From a virus (taxonomy: Duplodnaviria > Heunggongvirae > Uroviricota > Caudoviricetes): a stretch of DNA of 11,860 bases. Position numbers and translations under genes: made by a program. The stretch's first letter is position 1; each line of letters starts with the position of its first letter. The notes beneath the pieces are model-generated. The model worked only from the letters and a program-made list of their open reading frames with translations, did not search any database and was not told where the DNA came from. The stretch lies in IMG/VR virus record IMGVR_UViG_2522572021_000016; one strand, given 5' to 3'. Positions 9,153-9,586 of the stretch are shown one piece after another.

Positions 9153-9180
9153 TTGCTCAATTATCGCGATTCGCTATAAT
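9153..9180 (+). promoter_or_regulatory. Candidate sigma70 promoter (TTGCTC, 16 bp, TATAAT) reading into the tandem-repeat unit
   Basis: -35 TTGCTC at 9153-9158 and a perfect -10 TATAAT at 9175-9180, 16-bp spacer, in the non-coding gap after 9132. Confidence 0.35.
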
Positions 9181-9347
9181 CACCACCGAACGGCCGTTGA
9201 TGGTGTTCTCCGCAGGCAACGGGAGCCTCGCCGAATGAAGCCAGCCAGCGGCTTTTCGGCACTCATTTTGATGTGTACTTGTCACACACATCGGGATGAG
9301 TGAACGACGAAAACATCACGGTGATTTCGTCATGCCGCGATAAGAAT

Positions 9348-9577
9348 GCGCCTCTTTGGGCAACTGGAGCCCTCTGTACAGCGGGTTATTGCGGCAAAGT
9401 TGTGATAAAAACGCGCCTCTTTGAGCAATTGAAGCTCACTGTAAAGCGGCTTATCACAGCAGGCTGTAACGGGCGCTCATCTTCTGGCAACTGAAGCCAC
9501 CTGTACAGAGACCCGTTACGGCTGACCCTGAATGATTTCGCTCCGTGCAACTGAAGCACCCAGCGGAGTTATTCAGG
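9348..9577 (+). repeat. Four imperfect tandem direct repeats of ~60-65 bp (core GCAACTGAAGC ... CTGTACAG), non-coding
   Basis: Units begin near 9348, 9413, 9473 and 9536. Units 1 and 2 open with the identical 11-mer GCGCCTCTTTG. All four carry GCAA(C/T)TG(A/G)AGC; units 1 and 3 carry the palindrome CTGTACAG, unit 2 a degenerate CTGTAAAG. No RBS-supported ORF. Confidence 0.7.
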
Positions 9578-9586
9578 TTTTTTTAT
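9527..9586 (+). terminator. Candidate intrinsic terminator closing the repeat unit (also sits at the 3' end of the convergent minus-strand gene)
   Basis: CCTGAAT (9527-9533) pairs with ATTCAGG (9571-9577), with an inner CTCCG/CGGAG pair (9541-9545 / 9563-9567), followed by a run of seven T starting at 9579. Confidence 0.4.

Follow-up and report, generated by a model that had tools for sequence, protein, structure and literature searches.

In this study we describe an array of tandem hairpins at positions 9,153 to 9,586 of an 11,860-nt stretch of viral DNA (IMG/VR record IMGVR_UViG_2522572021_000016, Caudoviricetes), hereafter referred to as the window, which is 100% identical to an island located between yicC and dinD in E. 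coli O145:H28 strain RM12581. As judged from sequence, this interval most probably represents a non-coding RNA gene of ~400 nt, which extends from a TTGCTC/TATAAT promoter to a terminal hairpin (unit 4) followed by seven U residues, and the comparisons lend good support to the idea that its five repeated modules are homologues of EcOnc36, a small RNA (sRNA) of prophage Sp5 in E. coli O157:H7 Sakai. The explanation that we favor, with a probability of roughly 0.55, is that the island RNA provides trans-acting, multi-allelic copies of this phage antisense sRNA, which would be directed against the mRNA of a giant gene of Shiga toxin (Stx) phages. The RNA reading is based on strand-asymmetric folding, on covariation that tolerates G.U pairs and on homology to an experimentally detected sRNA, and these three lines of evidence strengthen what an earlier sequence-only reading of the window had considered plausible, namely an RNA transcribed from the plus strand.

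The array is preceded by a sigma-70-type promoter on the plus strand (9153..9180), composed of the -35 box TTGCTC (9153-9158), a 16-nt spacer and the -10 box TATAAT (9175-9180). It had been described as near-consensus and is present as stated, matching the consensus at six of six positions in the -10 box and at three of six in the -35 box. Because of the latter value, a consensus promoter scanner demanding at least 4/6 per box made no call at 9153-9180. In nine island variants the promoter is invariant except for one spacer base. The RNA is predicted to start ~5-8 nt past the -10 box, at the base of the first hairpin: TATAAT ends at 9180 and this hairpin begins at 9186, a geometry that matches the phage copies, in which the -10 box ends 5-8 nt before the base. 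In the minimum free energy structure the plus strand of 9186-9590 forms seven consecutive hairpins at -174.4 kcal/mol (z -7.45 vs shuffles), as compared to -148.8 kcal/mol (z -4.56) for the minus strand.

Five hairpins of the plus strand, designated module A and units 1 to 4, share the apical element NNGC-AAYNGRA-GCNN. Module A (9186..9259) is the fifth, divergent EcOnc36-type hairpin and carries the apex AGGC-AACGGGA-GCCU; the hairpin GCCGAA...TTCGGC at 9230-9260, which had been noticed before, does exist but forms only the 3' part of this module. Hairpin B (9260..9302), with a 17-bp stem unrelated to the repeat family, and the short hairpin C (9306..9331) follow. They are succeeded by unit 1 (9333..9396, loop AACUGGA), in which the EcOnc36 seed GCCCUCUGU is kept, unit 2 (9398..9461, loop AAUUGAA), unit 3 (9463..9523, loop AACUGAA) and unit 4 (9527..9584), which constitutes the intrinsic terminator with a 16-bp basal stem, the apex GUGC-AACUGAA-GCAC and the T7 run at 9578-9584, the repeat proper comprising 9527-9577. 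The units measure 51-64 nt, recur with a period of 60-65 nt and fold as simple extended hairpins. Thus, the four repeats that the sequence-only reading had placed at 9348-9577 are real, but they start at 9333 and have a fifth relative upstream, and the stem plus T7 terminator reported there is the fourth repeat itself, followed by the T-run. This terminator was not called by a simple scanner, since its "loop" is the whole apical hairpin. Module A ends in a weak U4 tail, so that read-through is expected. The internal units possess neither a promoter nor a U-run of their own, and both features are found for the array as a whole. GGA occurs in two of the five loops of the window array, the number varying among island variants.

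A repeat search returned three copies of 58 nt with identities of 79% and 64% at spacings of 65 and 62, and the apical 11-mer GCAAYNGRAGC is present five times (at 9216, 9360, 9425, 9487 and 9547). Its chance expectation is 0.10 copies, and five copies were reached by none of 200 shuffles. Tandem Repeats Finder at a minimum score of 30 did not report the repeats, and the Rfam search that had been suggested for this interval yielded no curated family: with Rfam 15 over 9140-9600 there was no match up to E 10 apart from a spurious PVT1_3. A covariance model (CM) built from 14 units contains 17 pairs, 13 of which show compensatory changes. CM R1 found all five modules, on the plus strand only, and a single site in a 47-kb Stx2a prophage. 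Units 1, 2 and 3 scored 88.6, 78.5 and 67.6 bits, respectively; the two modules outside the seed scored 14.9 bits (module A) and 18.2 bits (unit 4, E 6e-6).

The lack of coding capacity claimed earlier was confirmed. A 64-aa GTG open reading frame (ORF; 9300-9494) is open in all nine variants, but its variable sites are distributed 9/9/9 over the codon positions and its start lies inside a hairpin arm; a 57-aa ORF on the minus strand is frameshifted in three of the nine variants. Coding repeats were rejected as well, because the repeat spacings are 65, 62 and 60, of which only 60 is a multiple of three, and a codon-position bias is absent.

Covariation across homologous elements, proposed previously as a check, supports the RNA reading. 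When the window structure was projected on nine orthologous islands, 96% of the cells remained paired and nine pairs had changed on both sides; the covariation score was reached by none of 500 shuffles, and slid controls were paired to 35-46%. Many of the single-side changes turn a G-C or A-U pair into G-U, which is what an RNA transcribed from the plus strand should show. In particular, helix 1 of module A is paired in 92.5% of the cells with two double changes, helix 2 of hairpin B in 97%, helices 7-9 of unit 2 in 100%, and helix 13 of unit 4 has four pairs changed on both sides, while helix 3 of hairpin C is invariant across the island variants and hence uninformative.

The repeat copy number, which the sequence-only reading had asked to compare among related islands, does vary: module A is accompanied by four, three or two units. 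The apical 11-mer was compared in 45 copies (nine islands with five units each), read by eye from the alignments rather than counted by a tool. It varies at Y and R, which correspond to synonymous third positions of Gln and Leu codons in the phage frame; nine positions (all but Y, N and R) are fixed, as compared to a background divergence of ~10%. Beyond this, the only departures are found in module A, which is changed at the N position in two variants and disrupted in one island (L002; L numbers denote the loci compared here). In the non-coding island copies the stems drift and GCAAYNGRAGC stays fixed. The exact phage loop AAUUGGA is present in one of the 45 copies and in none of the window. 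In two islands (L006 and L007) unit 1 is nearly identical to the allele of phage 933W, which suggests recent exchange with phages. A shortened array is found in E. coli SCU-171 (L009, 1730-1960), where module A, a unit 1/3 recombinant and unit 4 are left and the U-run is lost; in this island the gene for the 128-aa protein downstream of the array is replaced by a dcm methyltransferase gene and a type II restriction enzyme gene.

The origin of the modules became apparent from sensitive blastn searches. Over 62 nt, unit 1 shares 87% identity with the antisense strand of genes annotated as "LPD38/LPD5 domain-containing protein", here referred to as the giant gene. The match recurs in a further ~300 genomes of E. 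coli and in 183 records of phages, all of which are Stx-converting phages or close relatives (933W L0134, Min27, TL-2011c, Shigella POCJ13 and others). In every record the plus strand of the window corresponds to the antisense strand of the phage gene, and the target region is itself a stem-loop; the stem arms of two phage alleles differ, yet both pair. These two alleles diverge completely on one side of the hairpin, which is the side of the MuF_C domain. Module A shows 81% identity to the same position in the second allele of the giant gene, that of NCTC9112. The modules resemble different phage alleles: module A matches L075 (54/62), unit 1 matches L090 (55/62) and 933W (54/62), unit 2 matches L090 (46/57) and unit 3 matches L080 (42/55), whereas unit 4 matches no phage allele. 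The reverse complement of unit 3 reads GSLYRWLQLPEDER, close to GSLYRGLQLPKDEHS of L080, and still looks like a decayed version of the allele's peptide. The giant gene is a late gene beside attR of short-tailed Stx phages and corresponds in the Stx2 phage Sp5 of strain Sakai to ECs1242/ORF80 with 2,793 aa. Sp5 lacking ORF80 produces zero infectious phage (PMC5155283), and gp47 of phi24B is abundant in virions and has been proposed to be an ejection protein (bioRxiv 10.64898/2026.04.10.717836). The array itself lies in the intergenic region between the PerC gene and the gene for the 128-aa protein rather than antisense within the coding junction of MuF_C and the peptide motif GLQLP; it represents a derived copy of the EcOnc36-type hairpin, not an in-gene member.

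Published data on the phage copy identify the hairpin as an sRNA. EcOnc36 was listed as an sRNA candidate on the minus strand of Sp5 that was recovered in five of five Hfq-CRAC (crosslinking and analysis of cDNA) datasets and has a terminator nearby (Tree et al. 2014, PMC4104026). In the same study ECs1242 ranked 17th among coding sequences in Hfq-CRAC recovery with reads that are overwhelmingly antisense, in one example 73,833 antisense vs 3,342 sense reads (PMC4104026). The published EcOnc36 coordinates are offset by ~137-142 nt from NC_002695.2, as calibrated on AsxR and on the CLASH (crosslinking, ligation and sequencing of hybrids) reads, and once corrected they span the hairpin and ~40 nt upstream. 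Decisive for the identity of EcOnc36 and the phage hairpin is that RNase E-CLASH reads labelled EcOnc36 carry the hairpin sequence, containing "ATGTTCCCCTTTGGGCAATTGG" and "AATTGGAGCCCTCTGTGCAGAAGG" (Waters et al. 2017, PMC5286369). HnrS was considered as the same sRNA and rejected, as it corresponds to EcOnc10-12 and is different. Among the mRNA partners of EcOnc36 recovered by CLASH are the ribosome-binding site of ompC (AACAGAGGGTTAATAACATG; false discovery rate 7e-163) and the 5' untranslated region of pssA (ECs3452; seven reads, replicated, -23.9 kcal/mol; PMC5286369). Both pair with the EcOnc36 seed CCCUCUGUG, which is located 3' of the apical stem. A 2021 review enters the EcOnc36 target as unknown. 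As an aside, the offset of ~137-142 nt between published EHEC (enterohemorrhagic E. coli) sRNA coordinates (PMC4104026, PMC5286369) and the current RefSeq sequence applies around 1.27-1.30 Mb and could mislead mapping of EcOnc sRNAs on NC_002695.2.

The hairpin is widespread. A scan of IMG/VR with the apical 15-mer uncovered more than 120 sites. About 70 of the 78 unique viral sites are antisense inside ORFs of 1,000-3,800 aa, where they read G-L-Q-L-P. With unrelated stem sequences, 69 of the 78 sites form hairpins of z < -2 vs flank shuffles. In 62 of the 78, stability is higher for the strand antisense to the ORF; this strand contains 154 G.U pairs, as compared to 68 for the fold of the sense strand, and a T-run comes after it (on average 6.2 T in 10 nt). 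In a CM alignment of 44 phage sites, which is fitted to the model and thus favors the structure, 94% of the cells are paired; double-change cells number 142 (shuffles, 37.6), and the covariation score is 0.489 (shuffles, 0.146). Alignment of 32 diverse hairpins by MAFFT and RNAalifold recovered the apical stem only, because arm lengths differ.

For an unbiased sample, viral genes with MuF_C were collected by means of peptide patterns located 30-80 residues N-terminal to the motif (L265-L328). Of its 30 unique sites, 73% have a sigma-70-like promoter with at least 9/12 matches in the 90 nt upstream of the hairpin on the antisense strand, as compared to 3.9% of control windows, and in 20 of the 30 the -10 box ends 5-8 nt before the first paired base. 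The codons of the G-L-Q-L-P motif are nearly frozen in this sample: GGG in 34/34, CTC in 30/34, CAA in 33/34, TTG in 34/34 and CCC in 33/34 cases, the background usage in the same genes being 21%, 7%, 49%, 25% and 12%, respectively. This invariance spans phages at 28-100% protein identity. Variant peptides keep the pairing between codons 1 and 5, as in R-LQL-P (AGG..CCT or CGG..CCG), G-LQL-S (GGA..TCC) and V-LQL-H (GTG..CAC). Frozen codons and stem-keeping variants indicate that a nucleic-acid stem-loop is the primary constraint, which the peptide follows. Phage alleles retain hairpin, loop and U-run but not the seed region, and GGA is always present in the phage loop UUGGA of the unbiased sample. 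The motif directly follows Pfam MuF_C in 32 of 33 diverse proteins. MuF_C has been classed as a phage BECR-fold (PBECR) domain with predicted RNase or RNA-binding function (Iyer et al. 2017, PMC5512222). From these comparisons, the phage hairpin emerges as a widespread, self-contained antisense sRNA gene with promoter, ~65-nt hairpin and U-run, which is embedded where the MuF_C domain ends in the genes of giant polyvalent, virion-packaged ejection proteins.

Other readings of the hairpins were rejected: a programmed frameshift signal, since the A-run abuts the stem without spacer and the antisense strand is the stronger one; an integron attC or other single-stranded DNA site, since the conserved part is apical and not basal; and STAXI and other known tandem RNA motifs, for which there were no Rfam matches. 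Some giant polyvalent-protein genes (loci L039, L074, L081, L096, L097, L104, L141, L167 and L202) carry two adjacent hairpins with xLQLx motifs ~65 nt apart and a U-run after the second hairpin only, which is a natural two-unit version of the island layout. A pattern search of viral contigs for two adjacent units was swamped by collagen-like Gly-X-Y coding repeats and was filtered by folding.

What has been known of EcOnc36 is its entry in published tables and nothing more. In the literature searched, we found no description of a family-level embedding in MuF_C genes, of codon and amino-acid covariation at the hairpin or of a tandem array on an island. With the data presented here, an orphan sRNA gains context as member of a large, hitherto unrecognized class of complete antisense sRNA genes that reside within giant genes, in the part encoding MuF_C; the nucleic-acid constraint on them is so strong that synonymous codons are fixed and amino acids co-vary. 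A second mobile element, a P4-type island of Shiga toxin-producing E. coli (STEC), has copied and multiplied the phage module. The hairpin also lends itself well to the question of which factor recognizes an RNA loop that is invariant in many phages.

How could the island copies act? According to the explanation that we favor, the ~400-nt RNA, whole or cut into single hairpins, would function in trans as extra EcOnc36-type copies. As it has the same sense as EcOnc36, the island RNA is antisense to the giant-gene mRNA, and its hairpins would pair with the complementary hairpin in this mRNA, aided by Hfq or by the FinO-domain protein encoded on the island. Pairing would perturb expression of a gene that the phage needs for infectious particles, and the diverged modules may widen the allelic range. 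Unit 1, having kept the EcOnc36 seed, might pair with the ribosome-binding site of ompC too. Across window and variants, module A and unit 1 are 81-89% complementary to known phage alleles, and unit 1 of some island variants is near-perfect with one or two mismatches. The loop is of the YUNR type, which is typical of antisense recognition loops.

Several observations weigh against this explanation. Units 2-4 are 76-81% identical to any phage allele found, or resemble none, but retain hairpin shape and loop, suggesting that selection acts on their shape and not on extended complementarity. Kissing between the loops would be imperfect with the common phage allele, because the island loop AAYUGRA almost never reads AAUUGGA. 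Silencing an ejection protein that it needs would be self-defeating for a satellite, if the island is one, unless silencing is partial. A co-occurrence figure that favors the explanation, namely a further hairpin locus in 55 of the best 60 array-carrying genomes vs ~5.8% (309/5,313) of the genomes without array, is confounded by STEC phylogeny and pathotype, and the source strain RM12581 shows no second hairpin locus. Sister islands with the SSB-FinO-PerC module in Salmonella, Citrobacter and E. coli are devoid of the array. Finally, the strains used for EHEC sRNA mapping do not carry the island, so that transcripts were read for the phage copy only. The functions considered for the island RNA, namely antisense action on the phage gene, control of host targets (e.g. 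ompC) and titration of a loop-reading factor as a decoy, are inferred from sequence.

The frozen phage loop is not explicable by cis-antisense pairing, which implies a factor that reads the loop. This leads to an unlikely alternative, in which the array is an RNA decoy or antidote sponge for such a factor, the MuF_C (PBECR) domain, whose coding DNA always bears the hairpin, being the prime suspect. The phage sRNA would then be the cognate ligand or inhibitor of MuF_C, following the logic of type III toxin-antitoxin systems and perhaps mimicking the anticodon loop of tRNA-Gln, and the island array would form a multivalent sponge that neutralises an injected or newly made effector. The position of MuF_C directly N-terminal of the motif in 32 of the 33 proteins, its RNase-like class (PMC5512222) and the divergence of the two phage alleles on the MuF_C side of the hairpin fit this idea. 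So do the invariance of the loop at synonymous sites, which goes beyond a cis-antisense function, the co-variation of amino acids 1 and 5 with the stem being kept, the fixed GCAAYNGRAGC in drifting island stems, and the tandem multiplicity typical of sponge RNAs. However, a contact between RNA and protein is purely hypothetical, one or two loop positions differ between island and phage, and EcOnc36 behaves in published data as an ordinary Hfq/RNase E base-pairing sRNA. Moreover, the "anticodon" UUG/CUG is a trivial result of facing a Gln codon, and U33, the hallmark of anticodon loops, is absent. More doubtful again is the specific version in which the hairpin is the cognate RNA partner of MuF_C (as inhibitor, pseudo-substrate or mimic of the tRNA-Gln anticodon loop) and the array a satellite's antidote or decoy against the effector of Stx phages. 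As the hairpin lies antisense in the DNA for this domain, both always move together in domain shuffling; if this version held true, the xLQLx peptide would be dictated by the RNA.

It is also quite unlikely, in our view, that the array is host-directed cargo, i.e. an amplified and diversified phage "moron" sRNA whose internal loops carry CU-rich anti-Shine-Dalgarno seeds for the regulation of host envelope genes such as ompC and pssA, in which case its link to the giant gene would be purely a matter of history. Prophage sRNAs controlling porins are known, IpeX being an example. Besides the CLASH hybrids of EcOnc36 with ompC and pssA, the predicted duplex of unit 1 and ompC points in this direction, as the seed is kept and the energy of -20.7 kcal/mol was reached by none of 200 shuffles; unit 3 has the same seed in most island variants. 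Yet unit 1 is the only one of five window modules with an ompC pairing better than shuffles, the seed region varies among phage alleles while hairpin, loop and U-run stay, and both the MuF_C embedding and the frozen loop are left unexplained.

We consider it highly improbable that the array is non-functional debris, that is, giant-gene fragments decaying after repeated recombination between the island and resident Stx phages and duplicated by slippage. The units do read as decayed coding fragments of different alleles, copy number is variable with a recombinant unit in L009, and a related island holds another fragment of the giant gene. But stems are kept by compensatory changes in non-coding copies, the nine fixed 11-mer positions are unchanged in 45 copies against ~10% background, the array is bounded by a conserved promoter and by a terminator that looks functional, and every unit is exactly the hairpin and never includes flanking coding sequence. 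The fragment in the related islands was seen in two E. coli loci with the SSB-FinO-PerC module (L257, 5034-5097; L258, 5031-5094). It comprises 64 nt of giant-gene antisense sequence at 89% identity and is placed 3' of PerC at the position of the hairpin array; its source is located 38 nt from the hairpin (L005, 3476-3539).

An array of binding sites for a dimeric protein (centromere or recombinase site, based on CTGTACAG) or an antitoxin RNA of type III, both considered by the sequence-only reading on the grounds of direct tandem repeats with a 60-65 bp period and of CTGTACAG in units 1 and 3, is barely credible, because the stems co-vary and tolerate G.U on one strand as hairpins do, the octamer sits in the single-stranded 3' internal loop corresponding to the EcOnc36 seed region (CCCUCUGUG) and is not conserved as a palindrome, being CTGTGCAG (no palindrome) in the phage copy and several islands and absent from units 2 and 4, the true iterons of the island are located elsewhere (TGTTCACC, 7457-7640), no adjacent partition, recombinase or toxin gene and no ToxN/AbiE-like nuclease near the array was found, PADLOC gave no hits, and hairpins of 60-65 nt do not resemble pseudoknot repeats of ~36 nt.

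The array can be compared with several known RNA systems. EcOnc36 itself (Tree et al. 2014, Waters et al. 2017) shares hairpin, apical stem-loop, CU-rich seed, -10 spacing and U-run, and the apical stem and five of seven positions of its loop AAUUGGA are kept in the five modules (island loop AAYNGRA). However, the island loops differ at two positions, and EcOnc36 consists of one hairpin, located antisense within a coding gene, whereas the array unites five diverged intergenic copies in one transcript on another mobile element. FinP/FinO of F-like plasmids, as well as RocR/RocC and Inc RNA/FopA, likewise combine a FinO-domain gene with a neighboring stem-loop RNA with 3' tail, the RNA being antisense to a structured target with complementary hairpins and existing in allelic variants. 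In contrast, the array target would reside on another element, the phage, the RNA is multi-modular and FinO-bearing sister islands lack it, and binding by the FinO-domain protein may be considered by analogy. Type III antitoxin RNAs (ToxI, CptI, TenpI) are also tandem direct RNA repeats between promoter and terminator and would, if the array is a decoy, share the neutralisation of an RNase, but they have an adjacent toxin gene, 34-36-nt pseudoknot repeats and processing by the cognate nuclease, whereas the array has hairpins of 60-65 nt and no adjacent toxin gene. Repeated hairpins with a conserved loop or CU-rich motif, whose multiplicity raises dosage or valency, are further found in LhrC1-5, PrrF1/2, CsrB/RsmZ and HnrS. 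These are separate genes or present GGA loops to CsrA, whereas GGA occurs in some loops of the array only, and unlike in these RNAs its module originates from the antisense of a phage coding strand. Finally, P4 CI RNA, P1/P7 C4, lambda OOP and P22 sar are small structured RNAs of mobile elements that act on phage transcripts, as the array RNA would; their targets are regulatory leaders rather than a virion-protein gene, and there is no sequence or Rfam similarity to the array.

Among 5,426 complete genomes of E. coli, 113-116 contain the array, almost all of these being STEC-like, and the array region also has 100% matches in some O157:H7 strains. In O157:H7 Sakai the yicC-dinD site is empty; hence, the published EHEC sRNA maps do not cover the array. 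On the plus strand the island encodes a tyrosine integrase, HTH, Rha and AntA regulators, an Icd-like remnant, a primase, SSB, a FinO/ProQ-domain protein and PerC, and the SSB-FinO-PerC module is kept in related islands. The gene for the 155-aa FinO/ProQ-domain RNA chaperone (8403..8870, plus strand), whose presence upstream had been noted correctly, ends 316 nt upstream of the RNA. Its product matches Pfam ProQ (2e-24), ProQ and FinO of NCBIfam and the structures of ProQ, RocC, FinO and NMB1681 in the PDB, and may be a candidate partner of the array RNA. A profile scan of genome contigs with the FinO alignment returned a single locus, in Serratia oryzae, in which the motif is absent. The gene for the PerC-family regulator (8830..9132, plus strand; Pfam PerC 2.6e-28) is situated directly 5' of the RNA promoter. 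Downstream, in agreement with the earlier statement that no toxin gene follows on the same strand, the next gene is convergent (9583..9969, minus strand). Its stop codon abuts the terminator, and the 128-aa product is annotated as hypothetical and had no matches in Pfam, PHROG, PADLOC and NCBIfam.

Further features of the island concern its mode of life. The D5/P4-type primase gene (5622-7445, plus strand) is immediately followed by P4-type iterons TGTTCACC/GGTGAACA in direct and inverted copies (7457-7641), which probably form the replication origin of the island. This block is a long imperfect palindrome, which Rfam mis-scores as plant miRNA precursors. At 10769-10851 (also L002, 10648-10804) there are tandem 12-nt repeats, AAAAAATGCGCA three times and then AAA(T/C)CGATCA(T/C)A four times. 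They match a block inside the small-terminase gene of an Stx2a phage (L005, 30517-30675), which contains AAATCGATCATGAAATTGATCATAAAACCGATCATGAAATCGATCAT followed by AAAATGCGCAAAAAACTC...AAAACTGCGCA. Packaging (pac) sites usually lie within the small-terminase gene, and the island repeats may be a borrowed packaging signal; this would make the island a satellite of short-tailed Stx phages. That the island is a phage satellite we consider likely. The array and the look-alike of the terminase repeats suggest interference or mimicry at the RNA level between satellite and Stx phages, and an effect of the array on these phages could bear on the spread of toxin phages. The AntA-like ORF (3352-4818) spans 488 aa without interruption, an AntA domain forming its N-terminal part and its C-terminal part matching a PHROG "transcriptional repressor"; at the same place in RM12581, RefSeq has a truncated AntA pseudogene only (L001, 4253-4510).

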